NCBI GenBank assembly: GCA_963706955.1
Contig: CAVPOC010000006.1
Location: 32,001-96,000, forward strand
From: an uncultured Verrucomicrobiae bacterium
GTDB taxonomy: Bacteria; Verrucomicrobiota; Verrucomicrobiia; Chthoniobacterales; Terrimicrobiaceae
Direction: 5' to 3'
Length of the DNA: 64,000 nt
In this document: one piece after another, positions 2 to 17,227 of the stretch
Layout: each line of letters starts with the position of its first letter
How positions within the stretch are numbered: position 1 is the first letter of the stretch
The notes under the pieces: model-generated
What the model was told of the DNA's origin: nothing
Databases searched by the model: none
What the model saw: the letters and a program-made list of their open reading frames with translations, nothing else
Made by a program: the position numbers and the translations under genes

Positions 2-913
2 CAGGCCGAGGCTTGGGGCTGGACTAATTTGAAGACGCTTGGATTGTCTGCGCTGGCGATCGTTCTTCTCGGGCTGTTTCCCGTCGTGGAAAAGCGCGCT
101 CGCGAGCCCCTGATCCCAAGCGACATCATGCGGAACCGTGAGATTTTGGTCCTGTGTTTCTGCGCGGTAGCAATCTGTCAATTGTTCTTCATCGTTTTGC
201 TCTACTTCACCCAGTATGCTATGAAGTTCCTCGGCGACGATCCGATGTGGGCCGGTGCTCGGGTGGTTCAGTTCATGTTGAGCTACGGGGTGGTCTCTTA
301 CTTCGGTGGTGTGCTCTACGGATTTTTCGGCGCGCGGAGGTTGATCCTTGGCGGCCTCGTTTGTGCGGCCGTAGCGAGTGCGCTGCTTGGAATCTTCGGC
401 CCCGGAGCGGGATGGCTGGCCTTTAATGGATCGCTCATGCTGCTCGGCATCGGCGTCGGCGCAGTTATTCCCACGGTCACGACACGGGCGATCGAGGCCG
501 TCGGACTGGATCGCTCAAGCCTCGTGAGTGGGATCGTCTTCATGTGCCAGCTTTCGGGCGCCGCTCTGATGCTCGCGGTGAGCACGGCAGTATTCTCTGC
601 GGTAAGTGCCCGCAATTTGCAGGGTTCTCTCGCTCGCGACGGAATTGTTCTCGCGCCCGATCAACGTCAGGCGGTCGAAGAAATCATTTCCGGCGCCCGA
701 ACCGTCCATACGCTTCCGCTTCGGACGGCGGCGGAAGTGGGCGATCTGGCTGAAATCGTTGAGCGGGCTTACCACTCCGGTCTGAGCGTGGTCCTTTGGC
801 TCAGCGCCGCGCTTGTTTTGATTTCCATTGTCCTCGTCTTGCGCTTGGTGAGGCCAAGCGCTGCGCCTCAGGCGCAGGTGGCGGTGCGTGCCTCCGAATT
901 GCCTCATCGGTGA
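2..913 (+). CDS. MFS transporter, DHA2/EmrB-like C-terminal half (5' truncated by window edge)
   Basis: Frame open from position 2; multiple hydrophobic TM segments, 'EKRAREPLIP' loop motif and the large loop before the last TM typical of 14-TMS MFS. Confidence 0.8.
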   Translation, partial: QAEAWGWTNLKTLGLSALAIVLLGLFPVVEKRAREPLIPSDIMRNREILVLCFCAVAICQLFFIVLLYFTQYAMKFLGDDPMWAGARVVQFMLSYGVVSYFGGVLYGFFGARRLILGGLVCAAVASALLGIFGPGAGWLAFNGSLMLLGIGVGAVIPTVTTRAIEAVGLDRSSLVSGIVFMCQLSGAALMLAVSTAVFSAVSARNLQGSLARDGIVLAPDQRQAVEEIISGARTVHTLPLRTAAEVGDLAEIVERAYHSGLSVVLWLSAALVLISIVLVLRLVRPSAAPQAQVAVRASELPHR

Positions 914-1427
914 GCACACCGATGAAAGGCAAATTGCGATACCGTTGGTTGTAGTCCAGGCCATAGCCGATCACGAATTCGTTGGGAATGTCGAAGCCGA
1001 CGTAGTCGGCTTCGACGCGCCGCTCGCGGGTGACACTCTTTCGCAGGAGAACGCAGACCGCGAGGCTCAACGCACCGCCCTCCGCAGCCAGTCGCTCCCG
1101 AACGGTGTGCAGTGTCATCCCGCTGTCGAGGATGTCGTCCAAAATCAAAACATGGCGACCACGAATGTCGGCAAACTGAGTCTGGCGAATGTTTAGTCGA
1201 CCGATGCTCTTGGTGCCGTGATAACTTGAGACGCTCAAGCAATCCACTTGCAGCTGGAGCGGGATTCGCCGCAGCAGGTCCGCCATGAAGATAAAGCTGC
1301 CATTTAAGACAGCGAACACGGTGAGGTCCTTGCCTTCGTAGTCTTCCGTGATTTCGCGAGCGAGTTCATCAAGCCGGCTCAGAATAGCCGACTCATGGTA
1401 AAGAATCTTCTTGATGTCTTGTAACAT
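801..1427 (-). CDS. hpt: hypoxanthine phosphoribosyltransferase
   Basis: VLNGSFIFMADL, PRPP-binding VLILDDILDSGMT, FVIGYGLDY...YRNLP motifs; ATG at 1427. Confidence 0.95.
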   Translation of the reverse strand: MLQDIKKILYHESAILSRLDELAREITEDYEGKDLTVFAVLNGSFIFMADLLRRIPLQLQVDCLSVSSYHGTKSIGRLNIRQTQFADIRGRHVLILDDILDSGMTLHTVRERLAAEGGALSLAVCVLLRKSVTRERRVEADYVGFDIPNEFVIGYGLDYNQRYRNLPFIGVLTDEAIRRHAPPPAPEAQRLASPSARRGQWKSKQARR

Positions 1428-1443
1428 CGGAGGCGCTGGCACT

Positions 1444-2031
1444 TCAGCGATAGGAGCCGATCGCGGTCAGCTTTCCTTTTCGTAGCGCGAAGAGCTCCTT
1501 GCTGACCGGATACGAAGACGAGTCGTACTCAGCGATAACGATTTCCGAGAAGCGCTGAAAGGCCGGGGTCCCCCGAGGAAAAACAAAGATTCGGAAACGG
1601 TTGGGAATTGCGACCAGAATATCTGGACCCAGAGTCTCGTGAAAAAGTGTCCCGAACTCAGGCGCAAGCACTGCCGATGCCGTCAAGGGACTTGTCGACT
1701 CGAGCACTGCGCATTGGATGACTTTGTTTTCATCGCGTATGAAGCGGGGAGTCAGCGTGGCGAGCACCTCGGAAGCAGCTTTCGTCGCCGACGCCAGAAT
1801 TGTGTCTCGAGTCGCGCCGAAGGTGAGGATGTCGTCGCTCTTCAACGGAAGCATTTCGCCGCTTACGTAGCGGGCCGGCACCAGAACCGTCCTCTCGGCG
1901 CCCTCGATCGGCCAACTCGCTTCGTAGTGCATAAAAGTCGGCTCGATGAGAAGATGCCATGTCTCGGCGGCTGCGGAATGCGCCGCTGCTGTGACGATGA
2001 GAAAGCTGAGAGCGCATTTGAGTTTTCGCAT
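1444..2031 (-). CDS. hypothetical protein with signal peptide
   Basis: MRKLKCALSFLIVTAAAHSAAA-E signal-like N-terminus; stop at 1444 sits just upstream of hpt. Confidence 0.7.
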   Translation of the reverse strand: MRKLKCALSFLIVTAAAHSAAAETWHLLIEPTFMHYEASWPIEGAERTVLVPARYVSGEMLPLKSDDILTFGATRDTILASATKAASEVLATLTPRFIRDENKVIQCAVLESTSPLTASAVLAPEFGTLFHETLGPDILVAIPNRFRIFVFPRGTPAFQRFSEIVIAEYDSSSYPVSKELFALRKGKLTAIGSYR

Positions 2032-2055
2032 TGGTCTGCTAGAGAGGGCGAGACT

Positions 2056-2661
2056 ATGATTTCTTTTCTTGAAGGCGTGCTGGAGGAAGCGCTTCCCACG
2101 CAGATCATCGTTAATGTGCACGGCGTCGGCTATCACGTGATGATCCCTCTTTCAAGTTTTGAGCGGCTTTCCGAGCCGGGTTCTCCTGTAAAAATCCTTA
2201 CCCACCTGGTGGTTCGTGAAGATTCCCACACTCTCTATGGCTTTGGCACTTTGGCAGAGCGTGACCTGTTCCGGCTCTTGTTGAATCATGTCTCTGGCGT
2301 GGGGCCGAAGCTGGGTCTGGCGATACTCAGCGGCATGGCGGTTGAAGTGTTTAAGGCCGCTGTCGTTTCCAACGATATTGCAGCGATCTCGCGCATCAAA
2401 GGCGTGGGCAAAAAGACGGCTGAAAGAGTCGTTCTTGAGCTGAAGGACAAAGTTGGGGTCGCCGCAGAGTGGGAAGCGGCGAGTGCGGCCACCGCCCCGA
2501 GTGAGCGCGATCAAGCTATGCACGACGCGGTGCTGGCCTTGATCTCTCTCGGTTACAAGCAAGTGGAAGCCCACAAGGCAATCAAGCAGTGCCTGGCCGA
2601 GGCCTCCGGGCCGCTCGGAGCCGACGAGTTGGTCAGAACGGCTTTAAAGATTTTGGCATGA
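2056..2661 (+). CDS. ruvA: Holliday junction branch migration protein RuvA
   Basis: MISFLEG, VHGVGY, THLVVRED..LYGF, HhH motifs VSGVGPK and IKGVGKKTAER, ALISLGY. Confidence 0.97.
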   Translation: MISFLEGVLEEALPTQIIVNVHGVGYHVMIPLSSFERLSEPGSPVKILTHLVVREDSHTLYGFGTLAERDLFRLLLNHVSGVGPKLGLAILSGMAVEVFKAAVVSNDIAAISRIKGVGKKTAERVVLELKDKVGVAAEWEAASAATAPSERDQAMHDAVLALISLGYKQVEAHKAIKQCLAEASGPLGADELVRTALKILA

Positions 2662-3974
2662 ATGTGGAGAAGGCGCAGCGTGCGGAAGCCATTCACTCCG
2701 CCTTGCCGGAAGGTGGCCTCTTCCACGAAAAGTCTTGGCGGGTCTCTCCGGACGCCTTTGTAATCGGCCGGAAGTTTGCTGAAGAGCTTGGAAAGCTTGG
2801 GTATCGTCTCCTGCGATTTGTCCGCGCCTGTAATCAACTCTATCGCTTCAGTGTCAGCGGACGTCAGCCTACCTGGATTGCAGAGCTCCTAGACCGCGGC
2901 AAACCTCGCGAACTGGTAGCCATGCAGCGAGAAAGGTCTCTCGCACTCGCAATCCCCAAGGTAATTCGTCCTGATCTCATCCTCACTGACTCAGGATATG
3001 TAATCGCCGAGCTCGACAACGTTCCCGGCGGCATCGGTCTGACCGCGTGGCTGGATCAGGTCTATTCGGACAATGGTGCGAGAATACTCGGCGGTACCGA
3101 AGGCATGCTCGATGGATTTGCTTCGATCCTTCCCGGCGGCGATATCGTCGTTTCCGAAGAAGCGGCGACCTACCGTCCCGAAATGGAGTGGCTGGCGGCT
3201 CGACTCAACGAATCGCGTTCAACCCTTGGCCACTGGCGCGTGGTGGACACTTTGCCGCGCGAAGACTGGCAATCAGAAGTCTATCGTTTTTTTGAGCTCT
3301 ATGACCTCGCCAATGTTCGTTGCGCCCGACAGCTGTGGGAGAAGGAACTCGCCGGTGAGCTGTCAGTGACACCTCCCATGAAGGCTGCGTTGGAGGAGAA
3401 GATGTGGTTTGCTCTTTTCTGGCTGAAGCCCCTGGAGTCGTTTTGGAGACGAGAACTCGGTGAACGCGCAATGCTGGCTCTGCGCAAGGTTATTCCGTAC
3501 ACCTGGTTGGTGGACCCTGAACCGCTACCCAGGCATGCGGTGCTTCCTCGCTTGGAGACGCATACCTGGGCCGAGGTGGCCCACTTCAGCCAGAAACAGA
3601 GGACTCTTATTCTTAAGATTAGCGGCTTTTCGGAGCACGCCTGGGGCTCCCGTGGTGTCGTGGTGGCACAAGATATGTCGCAAACGGCGTGGAAAGCTAA
3701 ACTCGAAAGCGCGTTGGCTGAGTTCAGCACCCACCCACATATATTGCAGCAATTTCACCAGGGGCGGTTGATCGGCCATGACTACCTTGATCCCGCGGCT
3801 GGCGAGCTTCGCCGAATGCGAGGGCGCGTTCGGCTGTGCCCCTACTACTTTGTCGGAGAAAAGACCGCGGTTTGCGGTGGGGCTTTGGCCACGATTTGCC
3901 CGGACGATAAGAAGCTCTTGCACGGGATGACCGACGCCATCCTCGTTCCCGCGGCGGTTGACATTTCAACTTAA
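2658..3974 (+). CDS. putative circularly permuted ATP-grasp / glutathionylspermidine-synthase-like ligase
   Basis: IRPDLIL, ELDNVPGG, ILK.SG...WGSRGV, ILQQF pattern; ATGA overlap with ruvA stop. Confidence 0.65.
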   Translation: MNVEKAQRAEAIHSALPEGGLFHEKSWRVSPDAFVIGRKFAEELGKLGYRLLRFVRACNQLYRFSVSGRQPTWIAELLDRGKPRELVAMQRERSLALAIPKVIRPDLILTDSGYVIAELDNVPGGIGLTAWLDQVYSDNGARILGGTEGMLDGFASILPGGDIVVSEEAATYRPEMEWLAARLNESRSTLGHWRVVDTLPREDWQSEVYRFFELYDLANVRCARQLWEKELAGELSVTPPMKAALEEKMWFALFWLKPLESFWRRELGERAMLALRKVIPYTWLVDPEPLPRHAVLPRLETHTWAEVAHFSQKQRTLILKISGFSEHAWGSRGVVVAQDMSQTAWKAKLESALAEFSTHPHILQQFHQGRLIGHDYLDPAAGELRRMRGRVRLCPYYFVGEKTAVCGGALATICPDDKKLLHGMTDAILVPAAVDIST

Positions 3975-4064
3975 ACCGGGTTGATTGCTTTTTGTTGTTG
4001 ACAAACTGTCACCTCTATCTTCTTGTCACCGTTCCCTGCGACTCAGTCGCCGGGCGCGGGTGCT

Positions 4065-4283
4065 ATGAACAGCCAATTTCTTGACGAAGCTTCCAAAGTG
4101 ATTCACGAGCCTCAAGTTTTAATCAACATGGTGTCGAAGCGGGTCCGCCAATTGAGCGCGGGCAGCCGCGCAATGGTTCCCGTGGAAGGTCGCATGGGTC
4201 TCGCAGATATCGCCTTGGCCGAGATCGCTCAAGGCAAACTAGTCCTCGCCGAAACGTCCAACGGCCAGGAGCCCGAAGAGTAA
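4065..4283 (+). CDS. rpoZ: RNA polymerase omega subunit
   Basis: LINMVSKRVRQL ... IALAEIAQGKL pattern, 72 aa. Confidence 0.85.
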   Translation: MNSQFLDEASKVIHEPQVLINMVSKRVRQLSAGSRAMVPVEGRMGLADIALAEIAQGKLVLAETSNGQEPEE

Positions 4284-4303
4284 TCCCAACGGGCGGGCGT
4301 CCG

Positions 4304-4762
4304 ATGTCCGCGGAAATCGTAACCAATCGCAAGGCGCTCCGAGATTATCATATCTTGGAAACGTTCGAGGCGGGTATCGAACTCAAGGGCACGGAGGTTA
4401 AGTCGATTCGGTCTGGACTCGTAAACTTGCAAGGTTCCTTCGCGCGCCTTGAAGGTGGAGAGGTCTTTCTCTTTGATAGCGACATCCAGCCATACTTGCG
4501 CGCGAGCCACGAACAACATGAGCCAAGACGCCGTCGAAGGCTGCTCTTGCACCGAGTGGAGATCGACAAGTTAGCCAGCGCAACGGAACAGGCTGGTTGC
4601 ACGCTCGTTCCCTTGAAAATGTATTGGAAGCAAGGGCGTGTTAAAGTTGCCCTCGGCATTGGCAAGGGCAAAGTGGCTGCAGATAAGCGAGCCGATCTCA
4701 AAAAACGCGTGCAAGAAAGGGAGGTTCAACGTGTGCTCGCTGGACTTCAGCGCAAACGCTAG
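4304..4762 (+). CDS. smpB: SsrA-binding protein
   Basis: NRKA..DY.I.E.FEAGIELKGTEVKSIR, LLLHR, GKGK...DKR. Confidence 0.97.
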   Translation: MSAEIVTNRKALRDYHILETFEAGIELKGTEVKSIRSGLVNLQGSFARLEGGEVFLFDSDIQPYLRASHEQHEPRRRRRLLLHRVEIDKLASATEQAGCTLVPLKMYWKQGRVKVALGIGKGKVAADKRADLKKRVQEREVQRVLAGLQRKR

Positions 4763-4776
4763 CGTAAGCGCACGGT

Positions 4777-4948
4777 TAACCACCGAGAACACGGAGGGAC
4801 AGAGTCTGGAAAGACAAGAGACCTCCTGAGACGATCGTCTCAAGGTCAGGGACGCGATCGTTCGAAAATCTGGCTGAATGACAGCGGAGCTTTGGACCAA
4901 GGTCATTTTATAGCATTTCCTCTGAGTTCTCTGTGTCCTCTGTGGTTA
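4777..4948. repeat. imperfect ~28-bp inverted repeat (MITE/REP-like element) with internal palindrome
   Basis: TAACCACCGAGAACACGGAGGGACAGAG (4777-4804) vs reverse complement of 4920-4948 TAACCACAGAGGACACAGAGAACTCAGAG; internal palindrome TGAGACGATCGTCTCA. Confidence 0.7.
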
Positions 4949-5056
4949 TTCCGAACGAAACTCACAGTTCGAAGCTCGCGTGGCTCTCTTTGACTGGGGA
5001 CGGCAAAAAAGAGATTGTTTTTGAGGGTCCGGCAGCCATATTTGCCCACCCTCAAA

Positions 5057-5130
5057 GGAGCCTTAGCTCAATTGGTTAGAGCGCTGCCCTGTCACGGCAG
5101 AGGTTGCGGGTTCGAGCCCCGTAGGCTCCG
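5057..5130 (+). tRNA. tRNA-Asp (GTC), CCA not encoded
   Basis: Acceptor stem GGAGCCT/AGGCTCC, D-arm TAGCTCAATTGGTTAGAGC, anticodon arm CTGCC-CTGTCAC-GGCAG, T-arm GGTTCGAG. Confidence 0.97.
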
Positions 5131-5206
5131 CTTCATTATGTCAGCGTCGGCTCTCATTGGGACAGTGGTCCTGCGCTGCTGTGCACAGCTGGGAGTTTCT
5201 TAGTTA

Positions 5207-5797
5207 TTAAGGCAGCGGCCACCCTCCGTAGCCGGCGCTGGGATCGAGCGGCGCAGGTGCGCGCTGATGAGTTCGCTGCGCGTATGTCTCATAGCTGACC
5301 AGCAGGACGCTCGCCTGCACAAGCGCTTTCTCGACGGGAGGTGGCTTCGGTTCGGCGAAAATGAGCCACTCGCAGGCGCGCATTGGCTCGGTCTCCACAC
5401 GTCGAAAGCTCCACCAGCTTTCGGCATCTCGCGGTATGCCGTAGATCGCACCAAAACCGGAGAAGTGGAACGCGGATTCTGCATCCTCGGCGGCCGGGCG
5501 CCCCGAATGGACGTTGAGTCGATGTTTATTTCTCATTTCCGCAAAGAGCCTGAACGAACCGCCACTCTTTTCCGTGCTCAGGCCCAACCAAAATGATTCT
5601 TGATCGGCGACGGGCACACAAAAGGTTCCCTCCTGGTCGCAGGCGACCGGCAGCATCCCAAGGCTGCGTATCGGGGTGCGGTGAATGCCTTCGGCCGGGA
5701 GGCGACAACGCTGGAAACTGACGCGCATCATCCCGAATAGACGCAGCGCGCCTTCCTCCAGGCGAGCCGCGCCTGGTTCCGGTGCGTCTCCGCTCAC
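5207..5797 (-). CDS. hypothetical protein (VSFQR...P...FWL-type unknown family)
   Basis: 196-aa ORF whose GTG overlaps the caspase stop (GTGA), consistent with translational coupling. Confidence 0.75.
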   Translation of the reverse strand: MSGDAPEPGAARLEEGALRLFGMMRVSFQRCRLPAEGIHRTPIRSLGMLPVACDQEGTFCVPVADQESFWLGLSTEKSGGSFRLFAEMRNKHRLNVHSGRPAAEDAESAFHFSGFGAIYGIPRDAESWWSFRRVETEPMRACEWLIFAEPKPPPVEKALVQASVLLVSYETYAQRTHQRAPAPLDPSAGYGGWPLP

Positions 5798-8367
5798 TCG
5801 TCAAACGAGCCCGCTTCACTCAAAAGCGATGCCAGGGCGTGCGGAGGGACTCGCAGTTGTTTCGCGAAAGTGGAAATCATTGTTCGCTGATCTCCGTCCG
5901 CGGTCGCGCTGTCAGGAGCTGCCGTGGACGCCGCGCCACCGAAAGATGCGGTGGACACGTCGAAGGGCTCGCTCGGATCGTCCGCTTTGGTGATTTGCTT
6001 GGAGGCGGTTTCCAGCCAGCTCTTTAGTTGTTTGCTGCGAGCCTGTTTCGATTTTTCATCGTAGCCCCAAACGAAATAGCCGCTTACTGGAACGACCGCG
6101 CGGACGCGCTCCCACAGCTCGATGGGCAGCAACTCGGGCTGCGTCTGGCTTGCTTCGACGATGAGCTCCCAGCTGCGGGCAAAGAGTGGCGGCTGTCGAA
6201 AAGGCTTCCTCGCCCGTAAGCTTGCCGCAGGGCAGTGCAGGGAGAGCGCCTCCACATCGGGATGGTCATCACCCACCAGCGCGCGGAGATTTGTGACCAC
6301 GCCGTCCAACAGATTGAGCTTGGACGATGGGTTGGGTCGGCGTCGTTCCTCCTGCAACAAAAGATGTCCACCTAAAATACCGGCGATCGGATTCTGAAAA
6401 TTGCGCACGAGAATCTCTTCGAGCTCCCGATTTAGAACTCGCCGCTCGTTGACCATGGCGATGCGTGCCGACTCGAGCGTTTGCTCCAATGCAACGTCGC
6501 GCTGGCTGTCGCCTACTCGTCTCATCAGTACCGTCATGCGGTTGAAACGGACATCGGCGCCAGTCTTACCGGCGGCGAGGGCCAGCAAGAATAGCTCCAC
6601 TGTCCAACCTTCCGGAACCGTAAGTGCGCCCGCTAGCATTCTATCTCGTTCGTGAGGGTAGCGCACGAAGTAGGTTCCTGCTGCGACGGGAACCTGGTCC
6701 TCTACGTAGGGGTCGCCATCGGTGGACTGTTCGGGCAAATCCTTAAGCGCACGAACGACCTGACCAGCTGAATCAAGCAACTCGGTCCCTTGCCAGGGGC
6801 GAGCTTGATAGGGAGGAGCTTGCTGACCGCTCCAGACGCGCGCCATCAGGCGAATCTCGGCCGCGAGTGGCGGATCGCCGGACGCAGAAGCGGTTGGGAC
6901 CGGTGACCCGCTTTGCCATGTCTTGAGCACGCCCCGGTGGGCTTTACTCGTCAAGCCGGTGCCAGGCAGCGGAGCGGCGGAATTGACTGCCGCCGACGCC
7001 ATCGAGAGATCAGCCAGAGGATCGGCGAGCGCCGGAAGAGCCTCGAAACCCTCCTGGAGCGTGGAGAAATCCAGATCCTGATCTAGCAAGATGATGGATT
7101 CGGTCACCGTGTGCCCCACACGGATTTTGAGTTTATACACGCCGAAGGGAAATCCCGCCGTCAAGACTCCCCGCGATTGCGCCTGTTTTCTCAGTGTTTG
7201 GTCGATCAGAAATATCTCTGCCGTGGGCTGACGTGGATTCACCATCAAGACGAAGTTGTCGTCAGGGCCGCCGGGTGCGACCGGCGCGCCTTTGCCGCTG
7301 ACCTGGACCAGATGGCTCTGCGGGCCGGTGACCTCAAAACCGTGTCGCAGGTGAAGCTCAGGTATCGCGACCACATATAACCCGTTCTCGAGCATCCGGT
7401 TCACCTCCGACTGAACGGGGAAGTTGTGCGAGGTTGCTGGCAGACCGCCCCACAACGTTGCTTGCTTTCCGACTGCATCCACGGGAAATGTCAAAGTTAC
7501 GGAGGTGCTCTGCTTCTGCCGTCCGGTCGCAAAGACTAGCGTTCGGTCGGCTTTCACCACCTCCGGCTCTTTGGCGATCGTCGGGTTTTTCAGGTCGTCC
7601 TCTGTCAGGTAAGCCGACATCCCATTGAGGAGGTAGTCAGCTAGGCTTCGCCCCGTGATCTGACCTTCGGAATCGACCGCTCCTCCCTTTAAGCCCTCCA
7701 GAAGCGCCCAGGTAAAGACCCCGTGAATCTCGTCGTCTTTTGCTTTAATCGGCCGCTCGACCGTCTTGAACTGCCGTGGAGCGGCGAATGCAATGAACGT
7801 GCCTCCCATTCGGCCGAACCGTGCCGTCTTCTTCATGATATTCTCCGGGTCGATGCCGAACTCACGGTCCATGCAACAATCCATCCAAAGAACGTATTCT
7901 TTGAAGTAGAAGTTGTCTTGAAACCACTCCAGCCAACCCGAGGCATAGGAATGCCAGCCGTTATCTGGAGTCGCATTCGCAACATAGAGAGCTCCACGAT
8001 AGCGGCTCGGCGAAAACCCGTGGCCGGACATATATATATAAAGCCGCCGTCCGAGCATCGGGTCATCCCGGGAGGCTCGCGGCTTCTCTTTACCGGCCTG
8101 CACGAGCGCGTCGAATGCGTCGCGCAATCGCTGCTGCTGTGGTTCGCCCTTCGTCGCTGTGGGCTCACCCCGAAAGTCGGAGGTGCAGATCAAATTGATG
8201 TGATCACGATCGTCCGGCAGGTCGCCACCATCCTTGGCTTTAAGCCAATTCGCGACCTCGAGCGCGTCCCGTTCGGAACCTTTTAAGTCCGCCGGGTCGT
8301 CCGGTGAAATCCCCAGGCCGGGATATTTTGTGATACCGACGACGATTGCGTAGTCGTCCGCGGCCAT
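5794..8367 (-). CDS. caspase-family (peptidase C14) multidomain protein
   Basis: YAIVVGITKY...LKG..RDA first strand, catalytic dyad motifs YMSGHG and WMDCC, HGVFTWALLEGL; about 570-aa uncharacterised C-terminus. Confidence 0.9.
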   Translation of the reverse strand: MAADDYAIVVGITKYPGLGISPDDPADLKGSERDALEVANWLKAKDGGDLPDDRDHINLICTSDFRGEPTATKGEPQQQRLRDAFDALVQAGKEKPRASRDDPMLGRRLYIYMSGHGFSPSRYRGALYVANATPDNGWHSYASGWLEWFQDNFYFKEYVLWMDCCMDREFGIDPENIMKKTARFGRMGGTFIAFAAPRQFKTVERPIKAKDDEIHGVFTWALLEGLKGGAVDSEGQITGRSLADYLLNGMSAYLTEDDLKNPTIAKEPEVVKADRTLVFATGRQKQSTSVTLTFPVDAVGKQATLWGGLPATSHNFPVQSEVNRMLENGLYVVAIPELHLRHGFEVTGPQSHLVQVSGKGAPVAPGGPDDNFVLMVNPRQPTAEIFLIDQTLRKQAQSRGVLTAGFPFGVYKLKIRVGHTVTESIILLDQDLDFSTLQEGFEALPALADPLADLSMASAAVNSAAPLPGTGLTSKAHRGVLKTWQSGSPVPTASASGDPPLAAEIRLMARVWSGQQAPPYQARPWQGTELLDSAGQVVRALKDLPEQSTDGDPYVEDQVPVAAGTYFVRYPHERDRMLAGALTVPEGWTVELFLLALAAGKTGADVRFNRMTVLMRRVGDSQRDVALEQTLESARIAMVNERRVLNRELEEILVRNFQNPIAGILGGHLLLQEERRRPNPSSKLNLLDGVVTNLRALVGDDHPDVEALSLHCPAASLRARKPFRQPPLFARSWELIVEASQTQPELLPIELWERVRAVVPVSGYFVWGYDEKSKQARSKQLKSWLETASKQITKADDPSEPFDVSTASFGGAASTAAPDSATADGDQRTMISTFAKQLRVPPHALASLLSEAGSFDE

Positions 8368-8401
8368 AGCAGCGTTACTCTCTCGCAGGAGAGCTTTTCG
8401 G

Positions 8402-9103
8402 CTACGAGTAGGCTTCCCGGACGATCTGCTTGTCCGTTTCCGTGAGATTGGTGTTGAGGCCGGCCGAGAAGCCGTCCTGCGTCCATGCGAGCGGAATGGG
8501 ATACATCATGATCGACTCGGCGTCCACTGGTGAGCTGTGAACCGAGGCGGGATCATACTTCCTGAACATGTTGTTCTCAATCGTTTCGAGATCCCAGTTG
8601 TTCGGCGGGCCTTGCAGGTCTTGAATCACGGCGTCGCGGTTCCACTGGATGGCGCGATTCGGGTTTTGGTGTTCGTGGATCAGCCCGAGCGCATGACCAA
8701 ACTCGTGCAGCACCACTCGCCGCACCTGGTCGTCGGTGGACTCGTCTGTCAACCACCCATAGTTCATTGTCGGCTCACTCGCGTCGATCTGGCGCGCGAC
8801 CGTGCCCAGGTACGACCAGGATCCCCGGCCCGGTTCGAAGGCAATCCGGATATCGGCGTCGCCCTCCTGGACGAAATCGAACCTCAGATTCGCGATGGTC
8901 GTCCAGACCAAGGCGACATTCTTCACGCGCTCCTGCAGGGCGGGGCCGCCGTCGAGGAACTTTACGGTGACGGTTGATCCGGGAGTCCATTTCAATCCGC
9001 TGAGCAGTGCGGCTTTCGTTCCTTGCGCTTTTGCACGATCTGCACCGGTTAAGCTCTCGATCCCGGGGCACATGCAGTAGTAGTTCTCTTCGTTGTTACT
9101 CAT
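8402..9103 (-). CDS. metzincin zinc metallopeptidase (astacin/MMP-like), no signal peptide
   Basis: HEFGHALGLIHEHQ zinc motif, SIMMY Met-turn, ADIRIAF..GSWSYLG. Confidence 0.93.
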   Translation of the reverse strand: MSNNEENYYCMCPGIESLTGADRAKAQGTKAALLSGLKWTPGSTVTVKFLDGGPALQERVKNVALVWTTIANLRFDFVQEGDADIRIAFEPGRGSWSYLGTVARQIDASEPTMNYGWLTDESTDDQVRRVVLHEFGHALGLIHEHQNPNRAIQWNRDAVIQDLQGPPNNWDLETIENNMFRKYDPASVHSSPVDAESIMMYPIPLAWTQDGFSAGLNTNLTETDKQIVREAYS

Positions 9104-9361
9104 AGTGTTATAGATGGTATTTGTTTCGGCGGGGTAAATGGAGTCTGCCGGCTACCGGATAGGTCCGAGAGTAGACACACGTCATGAAAATGCCAAGCGG
9201 CCAACCAGAGAGGTGGCTCGCGAAACGATCGGCCTCGCCCGCATGCGGTTCAACAAGCACTCTCGGTTTCGTTGGCAACTTCCTGTATCGCTGCATAAGC
9301 GAAGTTTAGTCGAATGCCAATATTATACTTACGCGAGCCGCTTGCTTAATCGAAGCGATGA

Positions 9362-10429
9362 TCATTCGCCGGCAGCTCCGAGACAGAACGCAATCAAACC
9401 CGCTGAGACCTCACGAATGACCTCTTCTGCTTCAGACCAAGGAGGTTGAAAGCTATCACCGCATTCGACAGTGAAGCCGTAGACCTTGGTCTTTGACGGA
9501 TCGGCAAAATGGCGACTGAATGCATAGTCATCGCTCGCACCCGACGTCGGATAAAGCCCGTAAGCTTGCTCAACACCGTAGTCACTACCACGAACTGCTT
9601 TCACAGCATCGTTCATTCGAGAGCTTAGTGTTTCTAGCGTCTCAAGATCCTCCGGGGGGAGGTATTCACCATATATTCGATCGTTTACACGGCCGCGGAC
9701 TCCGTCGAAGGTGCTGTTAGTAAAAGTCTGGTCTGGCTCTGTCGTCTGATTCTGGTCACTACCCCAGCCGTGTAGAATGACCGGGACCGCGCTGTGCACG
9801 TCCAGATGCCAACGAATCCGTGGAAACGCGTCGAGTAGCCAGACGACATTTCTAACCTCTGGTTCCGAGCCCGCTGTGGGGCCTCGATATACGTTCTTAT
9901 CGCAGGGATCCTCTGAGGCACTAACTCCCGAGTCCGGAGCAAATTTCGTCAAATGGTCCCACAAGAAATCGAAGTTGCGGTTGAGATCTACACCGACACA
10001 ATTTCCACTGCTAGGATGTGGCCGACGATTCTTGCGCCAGAGGGGATCGTTGGTCTGGCTGTAGTGTCGCCCGTCGGGGTTTACACATGCGCAGACGAAG
10101 AGATTCAGAGATTCCATTACTTGCCGAATCTCATTCGCCGTGAATGTCTTACTGCCATATCCCAGGCCTGTCCCCAACTGATATGCCTCGGCGAGGTCAG
10201 CGGCCAGCGAGATGAGGGCATCGGGGGGAACCCACTCCCTGGCATGGACGCCGCCTAGGATTAGAATTCCATCGGCTTCGTCGCTGCTTTTCGTCCCGAT
10301 GCGAAGGACATGAACCTGGCGACCTTCATGACTAAGATTTGGCGCTCGGAGCAACTCTGTCGTTGCCGGATAGGCTGCGGCCAGATTCTGCAATGCTGAC
10401 TGGATCTCGCCGACGTTTAGATAAGCCAT
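9362..10429 (-). CDS. M14 zinc carboxypeptidase (catalytic domain only)
   Basis: HAREW, NPDG, WRKNRR, DLNRNF, DVHS, LYPTSGASDDY, TVEC; AAGGAG SD upstream. Confidence 0.94.
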   Translation of the reverse strand: MAYLNVGEIQSALQNLAAAYPATTELLRAPNLSHEGRQVHVLRIGTKSSDEADGILILGGVHAREWVPPDALISLAADLAEAYQLGTGLGYGSKTFTANEIRQVMESLNLFVCACVNPDGRHYSQTNDPLWRKNRRPHPSSGNCVGVDLNRNFDFLWDHLTKFAPDSGVSASEDPCDKNVYRGPTAGSEPEVRNVVWLLDAFPRIRWHLDVHSAVPVILHGWGSDQNQTTEPDQTFTNSTFDGVRGRVNDRIYGEYLPPEDLETLETLSSRMNDAVKAVRGSDYGVEQAYGLYPTSGASDDYAFSRHFADPSKTKVYGFTVECGDSFQPPWSEAEEVIREVSAGLIAFCLGAAGE

Positions 10430-10434
10430 AGTTT

Positions 10435-10752
10435 TTACTCCTTACGCCCCAGACCTCGAGGCACTTGGCCCCTAACTGAGAAGCGGTTTGTTCCTCCCAC
10501 CTCTTTTTGGCGTTCGCGGCCCACTTCGGTTGCATTCTCGAGAACGCGAATAGAGATGCGAGATGCTGCGCGACTCCTTCGAGCGACCTCTAACTGAGTT
10601 TCGGGAAGGTAAGCATCTATGGAGAACCTACCATCTTTCTGTCGAGGAGTGGCACGACACCCTAGATCGGGCTTAAATTCATCGGCAAAGGCTCGCAGAT
10701 CGGCCAATGTCGGGCCCTCAATTTTGACACGGATTATGGATTCTTTGTTCAT
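10435..10752 (-). CDS. 105-aa protein resembling a carboxypeptidase activation (pro) domain encoded as a separate gene
   Basis: beta-alpha-beta-beta-alpha-beta pattern (IRVKIEG-TLADLRAF-DLG-IDAYLPETQLE-IRVLEN); stop 5 nt before the M14 ATG. Confidence 0.7.
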   Translation of the reverse strand: MNKESIIRVKIEGPTLADLRAFADEFKPDLGCRATPRQKDGRFSIDAYLPETQLEVARRSRAASRISIRVLENATEVGRERQKEVGGTNRFSVRGQVPRGLGRKE

Positions 10753-12657
10753 GTGGCTGATTTGACAATTAAGCGTCCATCGGCTGGAAGTCAGCGGAAC
10801 GGTGGGACCCTTCCCGATAGTTGTTCAAAGCAAACGACTTTGACTTAATGACAGAAGTCTGCGCCCGTTCACGATACGCGCGCCTGCATCTGAGCACGTG
10901 ATGGATGCCAATGGCTAAGAAGTGACCCATGGCATAGAAATGATGCCATCAAGAGGCGCTGGAATCAATCACATAGTGACGGCGAGCCCTTGAAAGGGTC
11001 CTCGGTTGCCAGAAGGTGTATCGCCTTAGATCGGCAACGTTTTTCCCAAAGGCACCTGCCGTCGGGCGCAAATTAGGTGTATCTGCTCGGGCAGCCGATG
11101 CTCTAAACCATCTGCGCCGAGTTCTCGGGAGTCGACGGTTCGATTAACAACATCAGGACCACCAGCTACCAAGTTCCAGTTCCCCAACGGCTTTTCGAAT
11201 CACCAGCTTATTCAGCGACTTTTCCACGCCGGTTCAAGAAGCATGCGCCGGGGGACAGGTTAGATAATTCTGACCCGATCGCAGATGCGCCTGGTTCGCT
11301 AAGCTTTGGTAAATCACCGAAGCGAGTTCGCACAAGAATGCTTCTCGACATGTATGGTGAAGCCAAACAATCTCCGGCGAAATCAACGTTTCCCCTGCGG
11401 TAGGCGATCATCCTCAAGGCAAGGTTTACTTCAATATCATCGATTCAAGAGATCCCCGATTACCCGCTTGTAATCGCCTGAAGATCGGCACGCGACCTGC
11501 ATTCTGTGCGACCGAGCAGTTAGATCGCCGACAACCCAAACCGGAAGCGGGCTGTCTTCCATGTTCGACCAGGATTCCGACAGCCCGCCTCGGAACGAAC
11601 GTAGGCAACTAGCTGATGCGTCACGGCTGCCTACCAGGCCACTTTCGGTGGCTTGTTGGTTTTCTATGACATGTGACCTAAAATTAGACAAGTCAGGTGT
11701 AATACTGGTTTTGCCGTACGCGTGGTGAGGGCACCGTGGCCCAAGGGTTCACATGTCGGAGAGAAGGTCCGCCGAGGAACACGACGGCTGAAAGCTCCTG
11801 ATTTAGCGAAGTATTCTTGTCATTGCTCGGAACGCGTATGACTACGAGTGGGCCCTGCCATATGTCCGAAAATGCGGGCATAGAAGGTAAAAAAGTCGTA
11901 AAAGTTTGAGAGCGAGGGCCATACGTGCCATCGATGAGGGGGGATAGCCGTAATTCGAACGAACTTGTGGGAAAAATCTAGGAGCCATAGACTTACGAAG
12001 CGGGCTTTGAACGCGCCATGAAGTCTGTCCCGGCAGCACTAGTTTCTCTTTGATTTGGTGGGAATTCCGCAAATTCCTGGCTTGTCGCGTTACTGCGTGA
12101 AGGATCTAAGGCACTTTTGAACTTGCCTACTCTACACTTCGGGGAAGTATGGCCGCCCATTGATCCAGCAAATGGTGGAAAAGGGCCGCGGCCTAGCGAC
12201 CTCCTTTCTGCTTCGCACTCTTCAGCTAAAATGTCCGCAGATTGAGATGCAGAGAATCAGGTGTATGGCAATCCGAGGGCGCGGGCGACCAAGTCGATGC
12301 AGGCGATGCTAATCCCAGGAGTAGCGGCGGGCTGCCGTTAAGCCCACCGACTTCTTTCCCCGCAGATCCTTGGGCAGCCCGCTGTTGACAGAGGCGGGCG
12401 GCTCGCCCCAAAACAATGAAGGCTTGTGGTGGAGCCGCCCTATATGTCGGTAAATAGATAACACGGCTTGCTATCGCAAGTCAGTCGGGGGATTCCTTAT
12501 TTTGCGGTCGTGGGTTCCCTGAGGAGGATTGCGACGTATGCGCTTTGGCGCTCAACAAACCGATCGAGAGGCGGCATGCTTCATATGCGACGAAGAGAAC
12601 AGGTCAGTTGCGGGCGCTGACGCGATGCAAGTCTAGCGGTGCGGTCTAAGCGCGCGC

Positions 12658-13059
12658 TTATCCGTGACGGTCTGTGCGGATCGCGCCACATTCTTTCATA
12701 ATTGTTCCAGCCTGATCGGCGCGACTGGCCTCAGTCTTCACTAGAACGAATTCGCTGTGATGCAGGGTGATCGCGTAGCCCTCGATTACGTCGGCTGGAA
12801 GATTGTAATCGGCAAGATGTGCTTTAAACGAGCGGACGATGGCGCTGTGGTCGCGCTTGGATGGCAAAACCGGTTTCGCATTGTCCCAAAAAGTCGCCGG
12901 CGTATGACCCAAGGCAAACGCGATTGGGTCCCCCTTGGGCGCGTCTTCTGCCACGATCGACTCGTCATAAACTGTTTCGTCAAAGCCAGCGCGTGCCAAT
13001 TTGTTCACGGCCTTATCCAGGTCTCGTGCATTGTCGAATATTCCGACGATTGTGATCAT
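12658..13059 (-). CDS. hypothetical protein, general-stress-protein-like
   Basis: TIVGIFDN..D..KAV.KL..AGF N-terminus and VLV......A..IM..CGA C-terminus. Confidence 0.7.
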   Translation of the reverse strand: MITIVGIFDNARDLDKAVNKLARAGFDETVYDESIVAEDAPKGDPIAFALGHTPATFWDNAKPVLPSKRDHSAIVRSFKAHLADYNLPADVIEGYAITLHHSEFVLVKTEASRADQAGTIMKECGAIRTDRHG

Positions 13060-13484
13060 TTAGTTTTGCCGGGCGAAGGTTGATTTGTACGGCTCAAAAC
13101 AGCCTCGCATCGGCTCTAAACCTGAGCAAGAGGAATAGCGCGTTTTCTTCGGTAATCTCCTGCCGCAAAAACGACGATCTAGGTGATGTTCAACAACAAT
13201 CCGAGTATCCAATCAAAGATGTGCTTGCTCTTGGAGTAGCCGTGCGGATATCAGCTTGATCGCGTAACTCGATTCGAACGAACAGAGAAGTGAGATGTGA
13301 GCGCACCGCTCGAAAGAAGCTTGAGATTCATCGAGACCGGCAGAATTTCCCCTTTCGGGCCGGCCGATTTGATGCGAGTGACCACGGTCAGCCACATTTT
13401 GAGGGGAGGGACGGTTTGCCACCACGGCTGACAGTTGCGAAATTTTAGAAAAACAAGGAAAACTACCAATAAGAACTGCACACA

Positions 13485-14048
13485 ATGAAAGCACCCAAAT
13501 TTATCCTAGCTGTCCTGCTTAGCTCGGCAGGCCTGACTGCACACGCTGACACCTTCAAGATCGATCCGGTGCATTCCTCGATCGGGTTCAGCGTGAAACA
13601 TCTGGGAGTGACTGATTTTTACGGTCGATTCAACGACGTTTCCGGACAAGTTGTCTTCGACAAGGCCGATCCTTCCAAGAGTTCAGTCGAGGTCACCATC
13701 CCGGTCGAGAGCATTGATACGCACAATGAGAAGCGTGACCAACATTTGAAGAGCCCTGACTTTTTCAACGCCAAGCAGTTTCCGACGATCGTTTTCAAGA
13801 GCAAGAGCGTCGAAGGGGGTGGCGACACTTACAAGGCGACCGGCGATCTGACCTTGCATGGTGTCACCAAGCCTTTGACGTTGGAGATCAAGAGAGGGCC
13901 GGAAGGCAAGGGCATGGAGGGCGAAATCCGTGCGGGCGGCGAGACAGAGTTCACGATAAAGCGAAGTGATTTCGGCATGAATTTCATGCAGGGAGGTCTT
14001 GGTGACGAAGTAACCGTCCTTCTCAGCCTCGAAGGCGTGAAGCAATAA
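13485..14048 (+). CDS. YceI family lipid/polyisoprenoid-binding protein, exported
   Basis: Signal peptide; IDPVHSSIGFSVKH, RDQHLKSPDFF, GDLTLHGVTK, IKRSDFGM. Confidence 0.95.
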   Translation: MKAPKFILAVLLSSAGLTAHADTFKIDPVHSSIGFSVKHLGVTDFYGRFNDVSGQVVFDKADPSKSSVEVTIPVESIDTHNEKRDQHLKSPDFFNAKQFPTIVFKSKSVEGGGDTYKATGDLTLHGVTKPLTLEIKRGPEGKGMEGEIRAGGETEFTIKRSDFGMNFMQGGLGDEVTVLLSLEGVKQ

Positions 14049-14050
14049 GC

Positions 14051-14891
14051 GTGTTTTTCGTTCGACAGTTCTTGCCAGGAATTCTGGTCGCGTTGCTGGT
14101 TTCCGGCATCTTTTCTGTTGTTGGACGCCTCTGGAAAGCAAACAGCTGGGCTGACGCAATCGCAGTTGGAGTTGGCTACGCCGCCGGTCATGCGGTAACC
14201 GCCGGTTGGCCGGCTTTCCCGCCAATCGAAGCGACACAGTGGCTCCCTTATCTTGGGATTGCGGTGACGGTCCTGGCAGTGATCGATACGCTGCTGCGGC
14301 CGCCGGGAACGCTCCGTGCCGTGTATATGGTTTCTTTGCTGCGCAGGAATCTTGTCGCTGCTGTTGACTTCTAAATTCCAGTATGGCTGGTCCCTCTTTG
14401 CAGGGGTGGTATGGATTGTGGGCCTGACAACGACCATGCTGGTACTCACCAGTTTCCTTGACAGGACGGCGCAACGCGACGCGTCAATTTCCCTTCCGCT
14501 TATTCTAGCCATAGTCGCTGGCGGGACAGGTGTTGCCTTGATGCTGTCGGGGAGCATGCTTCTGGGGCAATTGGCATTGGTTCTGGCAGGCGCATTTGGA
14601 GCCATTGTGATCGTGGGCACGCTGCTCCCGAACGCCATCAACGGGCGCGGCATTGCGCCGGTATCCGCGACCTTGCTTGCCGGTCTTTGGCTGAGCGGCT
14701 ATTTTTTCTCAGAGCTGCCGGCAGTGAGCGGATTTCTGCTTTTAGTCTCCCCGATTCCTGCTCTGATGCTCGTCCTGTTTGATGAAAGCGGAAGTCCGAG
14801 AAGGGGCCTCCTTCTGCGCGCTATCCTCGTCGCCGTGCCAGTCGCTCTGGCGGTATTCCTGGCCTTCGGAGCCTCGCCGTCACCTTATTGA
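14051..14891 (+). pseudogene. multi-pass membrane protein split by one apparent +1 insertion (or sequencing error)
   Basis: Two overlapping hydrophobic ORFs (14051-14374, 14316-14891); deleting T14324 joins ...LRAV to IWFLCC... Confidence 0.7.
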
Positions 14892-14944
14892 GAGCATAGA
14901 TAGATGCCCGAGAGGATGGCCCGGGGCTGGCGCACGAAGCCTCG

Positions 14945-15505
14945 CTATGCCGACTTCCATTTTATGGAACATCCGATGCTGGGTTTCTGGACCGTTGACG
15001 CTTCACGGCCGCTGATTACGGCATCAAGTGCGGCGCGCATTTCACGCCCGGAAATCGGGACGCCATTCCGTGGAGTGCTGTCGTCGAGACGGCCATGATA
15101 GGCGAGTCGTCGATCGGAATCGAAGACGAAGAAGTCAGGCGTGCATTGGGCATCGTATACCTTGGCCACCGATTGCGTCTCATCGTGGAGAAACGGAAAG
15201 GGAAAATCGTACTCAATGGCCATTTCGCGAAGTCTCTCCGGAGAGTCGTCGGGGTAAGCGGCAGAATCATTCGAGCAGATCGCCAGAAACGAGACGCCTT
15301 CAGGCTGGTAATGGCGCGCGATCCGCAGAATCTCGTCCCGAACGTGGACCACGTAAGGACAATGCCTGCAGATGAACATCACGACGAGCGCCTTGGCTTG
15401 CGGCACCTGAGAGAGAGAGACCGTTTCTCCAGTGACGACATTCGGTAGTGAAAATTCCTTCGCCGGCGTTCTCAGCGGGATAGAGGTGAGTGATTCTATT
15501 GCCAT
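14945..15505 (-). CDS. thioredoxin-family / AhpC-TSA-like protein
   Basis: FICRHCPYV, YPDDSPE, DETQ.VAK.YDAQCTPDFF, PSIGCSIKW. Confidence 0.92.
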   Translation of the reverse strand: MAIESLTSIPLRTPAKEFSLPNVVTGETVSLSQVPQAKALVVMFICRHCPYVVHVRDEILRIARHYQPEGVSFLAICSNDSAAYPDDSPERLREMAIEYDFPFPFLHDETQSVAKVYDAQCTPDFFVFDSDRRLAYHGRLDDSTPRNGVPISGREMRAALDAVISGREASTVQKPSIGCSIKWKSA

Positions 15506-15594
15506 ATTTGCATGTTGTGCCCGCAAGTGCGCCTTGGCAACCTCAGTGCGGCGGGTTAATCCTCCCAAAAACTTCGTGTAGCCAGCGCAGGCCG

Positions 15595-16452: not shown

Positions 16453-17227
16453 TCCGGAGGATGGGCCCGGGAGCGTCCTGGCAAGCGCACTGAACGCTGG
16501 CTTGAGCAGCGCTTGGGGAGTTTGCCAGACCTTCCAGCGCGCAATCGAGCGCCAGGTGGGGAGAGTTACAATCGCGGCTGAGATGACCGAGAATAATATG
16601 TTGGAGTGGAGCCTCAAGCTCGGCGAGGACGCGAGCGGCGGCGGTGTTCGAAAGATGTCCGTGCCGCGAGAGGATACGTTGTTTAACCGACCAGGGGCGA
16701 CGGAAGTCATTCTGCAGAAGGGCTTCGTCGTGGTTTGTCTCGATGAGGATCGCGCGAACTCCGCGAAGTGCGTCAAAAACCAGACGGGTTGCATAACCGA
16801 GGTCCGTAAGCACCCCGAAACAAGATCCGTCGCAGGAAATTCGAAATCCGACGGGATCCACCGCGTCGTGCGGAACAGAGAATGCCCGAATGACAAAGCT
16901 TCCAATCCGAAACTCCGCTCCCGTCTGGAAGAATCTCCAGTCGCCATGCACCAAACCGAAATCTTGAAGAACTCGGCCGGTGAGCACGTTGCAAAATAAC
17001 GGCACTTGGTGACGCGTCAGCATTACCTTCAACGCGCTCGTATGGTCGCCATGTTCATGAGTCAGGAGAATGCCTGACAGTTGCTCCGGGCATAACCCCA
17101 TCGCGAGCAGGCGGGCGCTCAGTTGCTTGGCACTCAGACCCGCGTCGATGAGAAACGAGGCCGTCTCGTTGCGGACGAGAGTGGAGTTGCCTTCGCTGCC
17201 ACTCGCCAGCGTGATCACCTCGAACAT
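16445..17227 (-). CDS. MBL-fold metallo-hydrolase (YycJ/WalJ-like)
   Basis: [41 protein letters not shown]. Confidence 0.93.

Follow-up and report, generated by a model that had tools for sequence, protein, structure and literature searches.

A caspase-like protease linked to a putative metzincin zymogen: a probable protease-activates-protease switch beside a tRNA-Asp gene of an uncultured Verrucomicrobiae bacterium

Latent toxins that are switched on by a protease are coming to be seen as a central principle of bacterial immunity, one that recalls the caspases of animals. In bacterial gasdermin systems, a protease gene lies beside the gene of the protein that it is thought to activate, and the protease-gated effectors known to us are nucleases, hydrolases and pore formers. 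In this paper, we have analyzed a 64,000-nt stretch of DNA from an uncultured Verrucomicrobiae bacterium of the Terrimicrobiaceae (contig CAVPOC010000006.1, positions 32,001 to 96,000; hereafter the window, to whose positions all coordinates refer unless another contig is named), and in particular a three-gene unit at 5207-9103 on its minus strand, which encodes a metzincin-type metalloprotease (P0003), a caspase-like protein (P0001) and a small protein of 196 amino acids (aa), P0002. The trio is probably an undescribed switch for cell death or defence in which one protease activates another. The specific reading that we favour, to which we give about an even chance, is that of a self-contained, horizontally mobile cassette, in which the caspase would sense a trigger, cut the pro-segment of the metzincin, and thereby free the metzincin as the effector.

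The closest described systems are found among bacterial immune proteases. Evans et al. (2025, bioRxiv 10.1101/2025.11.14.688446) list ten families of protease-associated effectors, namely MBL, a/b-hydrolase, Pepco, EACC1, PCaspase, bGSDM, CATASP, MPE, CalpT and Csx30, and report that the bacterial immune caspase LcCaspase cuts at R|G, which activates its partner LcHydrolase through two internal cuts. PsCaspase is likewise called arginine-specific (Rousset et al. 2024, bioRxiv 10.1101/2024.10.24.620036), and in the Type IV Thoeris system of the same study the caspase is a promiscuous executioner, activated by a TIR-made small molecule. The closest precedent for a protease that activates a protease in bacterial immunity is SAVED-CHAT, which specifically cleaves and activates the executioner PCaspase (Steens et al. 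2023, bioRxiv 10.1101/2023.06.23.546230). In that system, a hybrid of type III-B CRISPR and CBASS, both partners are clan-CD cysteine proteases, activation comes from the binding of cyclic oligoadenylate to SAVED, and there is a dedicated inhibitor of PCaspase. Among metalloproteases, myroilysin, a secreted elastase of Myroides, is given as the sole bacterial astacin relative with proven cysteine-switch latency, which it owes to a cysteine in its pro-segment (PMC9848320), and the cytoplasmic, zinc-binding protein AbsR1/SCO6992 of Streptomyces coelicolor belongs to the same branch of the metzincin superfamily as P0003 (PMC9705864). In the available parts of Kaur 2020 and Kaur 2021, metallopeptidases appear in other roles only, and we found no description of a caspase-metzincin or caspase-metalloprotease defence pair in the literature, although supplements, which were not covered, may list such neighbourhoods.

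By analogy, the logic of the trio matches that of the protease-effector modules of Evans et al. (2025). As in LcCaspase/LcHydrolase, the gene of a caspase-like protease lies beside that of a latent enzyme, the sensor parts are varied, the occurrence is sporadic across phyla, and the pairing of the two genes is equally tight; furthermore, the cleavage of LcHydrolase after arginine has its parallel in a conserved [KR]|A at the zymogen maturation point of the metzincin. The trio, which is known here from sequence alone, differs in its effector, a cysteine-switch metzincin, as no metalloprotease stands among the ten families in the available list, in the single N-terminal cut that is predicted, in a sensor region without a Pfam match, and in the extra small protein. 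Compared with SAVED-CHAT/PCaspase, the second protease is a zinc metzincin, and no nucleotide-sensing domain family was matched by the trio in the Pfam scan. Type IV Thoeris and the trio share an arginine-specific type of caspase-like immune protease that is switched by a signal, a role that is proposed for the trio; here, however, a second protease is always attached, and a TIR gene was found as a neighbour in one of the 27 long loci scanned.

The linkage of the three genes, as well as the anatomy of their products, is solid. A metagenome scan with the metzincin alignment returned at least 536 relatives, of which the 80 closest (48-90% identity) were kept, and the six-frame open reading frames (ORFs) of these loci were searched by hidden Markov models (HMMs) built from our own alignments. 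Within this set of loci nearest to the query, for which alone the count is valid, a caspase domain follows the metzincin immediately in 57 of the 59 loci with at least 400 nt of downstream sequence, the exceptions being L110 (559 nt downstream) and L111, in which the small protein comes straight after the metzincin. A P0002 homologue is found in 23 of the 29 complete loci, defined as those with at least 3.7 kb downstream (22 were recovered by the first HMM, and one more by an improved HMM). A scan of species-representative genomes with the caspase gave 13 loci, and in eight of them a metzincin gene (47-96% identity) lies directly upstream: a Terrimicrobium metagenome-assembled genome (MAG), Janthinobacterium, an Acetobacteraceae MAG, Sphingomonas, an alphaproteobacterial MAG, Nitrobacter and two Actinomycetota MAGs. 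A P0002 homologue stands directly downstream in six of these eight, both Actinomycetota MAGs keeping the first two genes. The order metzincin, caspase, small protein is also kept in the congener G001 and spans Verrucomicrobiota, Proteobacteria and Actinomycetota, its carriers being many soil bacteria without close kinship, with no further neighbour common to the eight genome loci. Adjacency of protease and effector genes that is conserved across lineages, the criterion used by Evans et al. (2025), is thereby found for this pair. Co-occurrence elsewhere, which the initial annotation had named as a check on its cluster of five genes, is seen for the trio, and does not extend to the M14 carboxypeptidase gene and its 105-aa partner, which lie upstream of it in the window.

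The way in which the parts of the trio vary points to their roles. The mean pairwise identity among cross-phylum members is highest for the catalytic domain of the metzincin (0.62), and amounts to 0.45 for the caspase domain, 0.36 for the small protein and 0.22-0.40 for the C-terminal parts of the caspase protein; a conserved metzincin on the one hand, and variable C-terminal domains and small protein on the other, is what one would expect if the former is an effector and the latter are sensors or regulators. In addition, distant pairs of the caspase and its C-terminal region, encoded by split genes, occur in Chlorobium (L017 and L018) and Pseudomonas arabinosi (L019) with an unnamed gene of ~500 aa in the place of the metzincin, for which there is one weak hint of an alpha/beta-hydrolase (E = 0.0086). 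This gene may be an alternative effector, and that it can take the place of the metzincin speaks for the metzincin as the effector. By comparison, none of 17 more distant metzincins on viral contigs (30-48% identity) has a caspase beside it, and the pro-segment is missing from them. The module is sporadic, as the caspase query matched 4 of 19 genomes of the genus and 3 of 401 genomes of the phylum, and tandem, head-to-tail copies of it or of its caspase part are present in four loci (L106, L094, L114 and L016). In the congener G010 (L038, G010:C2 8532-12474), the metzincin is broken over two frames, and so is the caspase domain; this MAG is 68% complete, and its module is either in decay or wrongly assembled.

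The metzincin gene (8402-9103) encodes a protein of 233 aa, P0003, which gave weak matches in Pfam, both over the cut-off, to Peptidase_M10 (35.3 bits) and Astacin (30.3 bits), and which matches the myroilysin structures 5czw, 5gwd and 5zjk in the PDB with E-values of 2e-54 (phmmer) and 1.5e-70 (profile search). Its zinc motif is HEFGHALGLIHEH and its Met-turn SIMMY; the pattern HExxHxxGxxHE is kept in 86-87 of the 87 metzincin homologues, and M199 and Y201 of the Met-turn in all of them. By motif and homology, P0003 is an astacin-like M12 metzincin of the myroilysin type. The N-terminus, MSNNEENYYC, shows no sign of a secretion signal such as myroilysin and the animal astacins have, the maximal Kyte-Doolittle value being 0.80 over 12 residues. 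The catalytic domain (residues 31-233; 8402-9013) is the proposed effector, and is preceded by a pro-segment (residues 1-30; 9014-9103). Among 76 distinct homologues with complete N-termini, the cysteine of the pro-segment (Cys10, codon 9074-9076) is kept in all, and a basic residue in the column of Lys30 (codon 9014-9016) in 75, as arginine in 40 and lysine in 35. This residue is followed by alanine (67 sequences), glycine (6) or threonine (2), then by alanine (73) and two leucines, while the stretch from the cysteine to the basic residue varies in both length and sequence, the mean identity of the pro-segment being 0.29. In the profile alignment, Lys30 falls on the arginine immediately before the start of the mature myroilysin chain in 5zjk, and we propose it as the predicted P1 residue of the maturation site. 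Taken together, the protein appears to be built as a zymogen with a pro-segment of the cysteine-switch type, for which capping of the zinc and cleavage are predicted.

P0003 and myroilysin thus have in common the HExxHxxGxxHE motif, the tyrosine of the Met-turn, a short unstructured pro-segment with a cysteine, and a basic residue before the mature N-terminus, and they differ in that P0003 has no signal peptide, is paired with a caspase, and has a pro-segment of only ~30 residues. P0003 also matches the NCBIfam model NF050131 (AbsR1; E = 8.9e-36), but its 123.6 bits are far below the cut-off of 650, so that it is not an AbsR1 orthologue. In the available account of SCO6992 (PMC9705864), that protein has 359 aa and a C-terminal extension, its neighbour is a divergent gene of 606 aa that is not described there as a caspase, and a glucuronidase activity is reported, which has no counterpart in P0003. 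A full-length fusion of SCO6992, the one relative that has been studied, with maltose-binding protein (MBP-SCO6992) showed no protease activity in the same work, and persisting zymogen latency is a possible explanation of this result.

The caspase-like protein P0001 has 857 aa (5794-8367), of which residues 1-285 form the caspase-like (clan CD) domain (7513-8367). It has no Pfam match at E <= 0.01, and hence none to PF00656, while some of its homologues carry a precomputed PF00656 match, which indicates a divergent C14-like domain. The generic 'caspase' model of PADLOC matched at E = 8.4e-7, and the NCBIfam model caspase_w_EACC1 at E = 8.6e-10, with 38.4 bits against a cut-off of 140, i.e. below it; no Pfam family, EACC1 included, matched the neighbouring genes. 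In the AlphaFold2 (AF2) model, which has a predicted local distance difference test (pLDDT) score of 68, the caspase domain was matched by Foldseek with probability 1.0 to the caspase-Ig3 part of MALT1, caspase-7, caspase-8, legumain and the metacaspase Yca1. The catalytic motifs SGH116GF and D163-C-C165 are intact (codons 8020-8022 for His116 and 7873-7875 for Cys165), and among 63 distinct homologues H116 and D163 are invariant and C165 is kept in 62, while Cys164 is variable (53 of 63). As judged from the model and these residues, P0001 has a caspase-hemoglobinase fold with the His-Cys dyad in the canonical order, and by their motifs both the caspase and the metzincin look active. An aspartate two residues before the catalytic cysteine, here D163, is what we take to be the pattern of Arg/Lys-specific paracaspases and metacaspases, and the P0001 caspase is predicted to be suited to a basic P1 residue (Arg/Lys).

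The C-terminal region of P0001 (residues 286-857; 5794-7512) is the proposed sensor or regulatory part. In the AF2 model, it begins with a pair of beta-sandwiches, which a disordered linker (436-501) joins to one more beta domain; a helical domain (625-796), another disordered linker (797-828) and a conserved terminal pair of helices follow. No Pfam family and no solved relative were found for it by sequence, and the P0001 profile gave marginal matches alone in the PDB (0.037-0.05). Searches of the protein atlas yielded the leads Y4kD_C (0.85) and pYEATS (0.76), which are unconfirmed. The region occurs almost exclusively beside caspase domains or alone; among the 28 loci that have at least 3.7 kb downstream and hold both caspase parts, it is a separate gene in 10, and forms one gene with the caspase domain in 18.

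The third protein, P0002 (5207-5797), is a stand-alone beta-sandwich of an unnamed family. It matched nothing in Pfam, NCBIfam or PADLOC, and its AF2 model (pLDDT 74.5), an Ig-like beta-sandwich, had no Foldseek hit at E <= 0.001; a profile search of the PDB was likewise empty, the best VIA match was to PmoD (Z = 5.8) amid generic beta-sandwiches, and the protein atlas matches were unnamed clusters. The family comprises 493 representatives at 50% identity, of which the top 150, with lengths of 115-293 aa, all stand alone and end where the profile does. In 67 diverse members, Q29, R30, S45, G47, E67, W70, G120 and the C-terminal P196 are invariant. Its gene is missing from 6 of the 29 complete loci, and it is therefore treated here as an accessory regulator, though this role is the least certain part of our account; for the same reason, a proteolytic relay that ends on this protein, as once proposed, is unlikely. 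The dedicated inhibitor of PCaspase offers a possible analogy. A link to gasdermins, with whose systems the initial annotation had drawn a comparison, was not found: the five proteins of the cluster match no Pfam family beyond the M14 and metzincin models, gasdermins included, the fold searches with P0002, which would not decide the matter by themselves, listed no gasdermin, and P0002 has no notable hydrophobic or amphipathic segment. An assignment of P0002 to CATASP (CATRA-associated small protein, PF20271) was tried and rejected, as there was no Pfam match and a search of the whole genome with PF20271 gave 12-bit noise elsewhere; CATRA gave no match either, and an apparent fusion of the caspase with P0002 in L016 proved to be two adjacent genes in different frames. 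A complex prediction with the metzincin as partner (caspase 1-355, metzincin, P0002) scored 0.00, and was used neither for nor against binding.

The cassette lies in DNA that is extra relative to a congener. The window is collinear with the genome G017 on both sides (79% identity), the blocks matched by blastn following in order at 14-4755, 4987-5133, 11537-11718, 12326-12522 and 12662-17140, and G017 lacks 5134-11536, in whose place it has ~116 nt. The insertion of 6.4 kb so defined holds the trio, the M14 unit and ~0.8 kb of non-coding DNA. Its left border is a tRNA-Asp gene (anticodon GTC; 5057-5131, plus strand), predicted by ARAGORN and matched by Rfam RF00005 with 70.8 bits, whose synteny with SmpB is maintained across the genus; its right border is set by G017, as the DNA 3' of tRNA-Asp in five other congeners is unrelated to the window. 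Within 8 kb of that flank, four of these five congeners carry mobile genes, namely three transposases in G004 (L033), a phage-type integrase in G003 (L034), TrbI in G006 (L036) and a DDE transposase in G001 (L032), which marks the site as an insertion hot spot of the genus; the trio of G001 itself is on a different contig from its tRNA-Asp. No integrase was found among the ORFs of the island; for attachment (att) sites, the 30-nt 3' end of the tRNA was found only once with up to 3 mismatches, and there is no direct repeat of 14 nt or more at the borders. The initial view of an island at a tRNA 3' end is consequently borne out by the extra DNA and the mobile flanks, and not by an integrase or att repeat.

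The five co-directional genes described by the initial annotation are all present at the positions it gave, on the minus strand, and the spacings from the 105-aa gene to P0002 are 5 nt, 258 nt, 34 nt (metzincin to caspase) and a 4-nt GTGA overlap (5794-5797), in which the GTG start of P0002 overlaps the stop of the caspase gene. However, the genes do not start downstream of tRNA-Asp as it had stated. As they run on the minus strand, and the stop codon of P0002, the last of the five, is 75 nt from the 3' end of the tRNA, the cluster ends there, convergent with the tRNA. The family assignments of the M14 protein (PF00246), the metzincin (myroilysin) and the caspase (PADLOC/NCBIfam and fold match) hold, their catalytic motifs are intact as claimed, and a crude hydropathy test agrees that none of the five proteins has a signal-peptide-like stretch, nor did it show a transmembrane one. 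Scans for promoters and terminators were at the level of chance, with consensus promoter sites no more frequent than expected by chance, and the Rfam scan of the locus returned nothing besides the tRNA; the 258-nt spacer upstream of the metzincin (9104-9361) likely holds the trio's own promoter.

How the switch might work can be outlined as follows. The metzincin would be made as a zymogen, Cys10 of its 30-residue pro-segment capping the catalytic zinc in a cysteine switch as in myroilysin. The caspase protein would be the upstream enzyme, whose variable C-terminal beta-sandwich and helical domains would receive the trigger, most likely a signal of infection or stress, and whose caspase domain, the predicted Arg/Lys cutter, would then cleave the pro-segment at [KR]30|A-A-L-L. 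The freed metzincin would act as the effector, degrading proteins of the cell or of an invader and causing growth arrest or cell death, with the 196-aa protein as a non-essential accessory regulator, e.g. an inhibitor or adaptor. In this outline, we infer which way the cascade runs, where the cut falls, what acts as the trigger, and that the role is one in defence or cell death. Of the relay of proteases imagined originally, a zymogen-controlled relay that involves the caspase is reasonable, given the cysteine-switch pro-segment and the basic site, and the version with three catalytic classes is not. More tentatively, with a chance somewhat short of even, the trio may represent a widespread prokaryotic module for immunity or cell death that so far has no name. 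In it, a caspase-like cysteine protease would activate a metalloprotease zymogen of the cytoplasm by removing its cysteine-switch pro-segment, as a bacterial counterpart of animal cascades in which a protease activates a metalloprotease; it would then have a new sensor region, a new family of small regulators, and, with a protease as effector, an eleventh mechanistically distinct effector class. If this is true, bacteria chain two catalytic classes of protease, and a cysteine-switch zymogen, a kind of latency so far known from secreted enzymes, operates inside the cytoplasm. Related stretches number at least 536 in soil metagenomes, where the module is common; it occurs in several phyla, includes two protein regions without a family assignment, and lends itself to a testable prediction, i.e. 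a single cut after K30.

Several points weigh against the favoured reading. The cleavage of the metzincin by the caspase and a part in phage defence are predictions; the assignment of P1 presumes that the chain start in 5zjk is the natural mature N-terminus, the specificity argued from Asp163 is a prediction from likeness of motif, and the trigger-sensing role of the C-terminal region is read solely from its variability and position. PADLOC recognized no system at the locus, the generic caspase model being its one match, and the 57 of 59 linked loci are those nearest to the query metzincin. With its invariant residues and its retention in most loci, P0002 may have a more central role than that of an accessory, and the copy broken by frame changes in G010 implies that the module is dispensable. 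In the loci scanned elsewhere, the genes around the module differ from one locus to the next, and most of them are ordinary genes of metabolism or transport. As for expression, DNA nearly identical to the locus is present in soil and rhizosphere metagenomes of six other studies, and metatranscriptome contigs from four soil or rhizosphere libraries (three studies), short and of low depth, lie on all five genes, with single contigs that bridge the metzincin-caspase junction (8319-8469) and the caspase-small-protein junction (5664-5814); these contigs are compatible with transcription, but at 95-99% likeness to the window and low depth they could also be DNA carry-over.

Some of these points would also fit a role outside immunity, that is, regulated intracellular proteolysis for turnover in starvation or stress, for developmental cell death, or for maturation of the 196-aa protein, whose invariant C-terminal tail GYGGW-x-LP would then be the substrate. 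We consider this unlikely. The preponderance of ordinary neighbours, the lack of fit to any known defence-system model, the absence of the module from viral contigs, and the strictly conserved termini of the P0002 family speak for it, as does the effect of the relative SCO6992 on antibiotic production in Streptomyces, reported in the available text of PMC9705864. On the other hand, its sporadic distribution with close relatives across phyla, its tandem duplications and its insertion at a tRNA flank are more typical of accessory conflict systems, and so are the defence-type or mobile neighbours of some loci, which include AbiEii (L073), a type I restriction-modification system (L089), patatin (L043), integrase (L117), and an S24 peptidase with a phage tube protein (L008); P0002, being absent from 6 of 29 loci, cannot be an obligatory substrate either. 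No CRISPR or CBASS family was seen among the neighbours scanned. Beside the trio of Nitrobacter vulgaris (L012), positions 11401-18011 of that locus hold the TIR gene mentioned above and a protein of 1755 aa with DUF7379, CHAT and TPR-S domains, a cluster of conflict-type protease and TIR genes.

An improbable alternative is that the cascade runs in reverse or in parallel, with the metzincin as first responder, its switch opened by thiol oxidation, an electrophile or another protease, and the caspase as executioner; the metzincin would then cleave the linkers of the caspase protein (436-501 or 797-828) or the 196-aa protein. The cysteine switches of matrix metalloproteinases can indeed be opened chemically without proteolysis, and P0001 offers two long disordered linkers and a conserved, possibly auto-inhibitory pair of C-terminal helices. 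Bacterial caspases can also be promiscuous executioners, according to Rousset et al. (2024) and Steens et al. (2023). Three observations favour activation of the metzincin by the caspase instead, namely the conserved basic P1 at the maturation site, which fits a caspase-type cutter, the concentration of variable, sensor-like domains on the caspase while the metzincin is the most conserved part, and the replacement of the metzincin by another gene in distant pairs, as expected of an exchangeable effector.

The remaining two genes of the cluster belong to another unit. The M14 zinc carboxypeptidase (355 aa; 9362-10429, minus strand) matches PF00246 at residues 9-340 (E = 8.2e-55, 186.9 bits), with H62/E65 as its HxxE zinc motif, and the gene upstream of it (10435-10752, minus strand) encodes a protein of 105 aa that matches no family in Pfam, NCBIfam or PADLOC, which leaves its initial description as pro-domain-like without support. 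The 105-aa gene stands directly upstream of the M14 gene in G005 and G015 as well (71-72% identity), and neither genome has a match to the caspase query; conversely, no M14 gene lies within 10 kb of the trio in G001 or G010, M14 is absent by tblastn from 7 of 7 cross-phylum genome loci, and no M14 family occurs among the flanking proteins of the scanned metagenome loci. Among the genome loci, an M14 gene is present only in a Terrimicrobium relative that is 91% identical. The GC content is ~0.60 over the trio and ~0.53-0.55 over the M14 pair. From their independent distribution it follows that the 258-nt gap, which had been named beforehand as a possible divide between separately acquired units, does separate two units, and that the M14 and 105-aa pair is a unit of two genes, unrelated to the trio, that came to lie in the same island. 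That all five genes form one system after all, a relay of M14, metzincin and caspase with pro-domain-like control that ends on the 196-aa protein, as the initial annotation had it, can be dismissed as very improbable, since the co-directional arrangement in a single 6.4-kb insertion and the M14 gene upstream of the metzincin in the near-identical relative G007 (L007) are outweighed by these phyletic patterns, which largely refute it, as well as by the gap, the GC step (0.60 versus 0.53) and the dispensability of the 196-aa gene. An M14 homologue with 47% identity, at G030:C2:1551157-1552215 (L123), lies inside an open frame of 1101 aa, and may be fused to other domains.

Further observations concern the surroundings of the cluster. 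The window is poor in genes at 10753-13484, where the minus strand at 11208-12480 carries a chain of short stop-to-stop frames with repeated frame shifts that resembles a decayed gene. The blocks 11537-11718 and 12326-12522 are conserved in the congeners G016 and G017 and match no family or RNA model, and an ORF of 133 aa at 12658-13059 (minus strand), which belongs to no Pfam family, has several paralogues per genome across the genus. In the interval between smpB and tRNA-Asp, a motif of ~30 nt at ~4917-4948 is repeated at 88-97% identity across many contigs, both in this genome and in its congeners, and resembles a dispersed short repeat of the genus. Finally, ARAGORN predicts a tRNA-SeC (anticodon TCA) at 56568-56659 on the plus strand, and the organism therefore probably uses selenocysteine.

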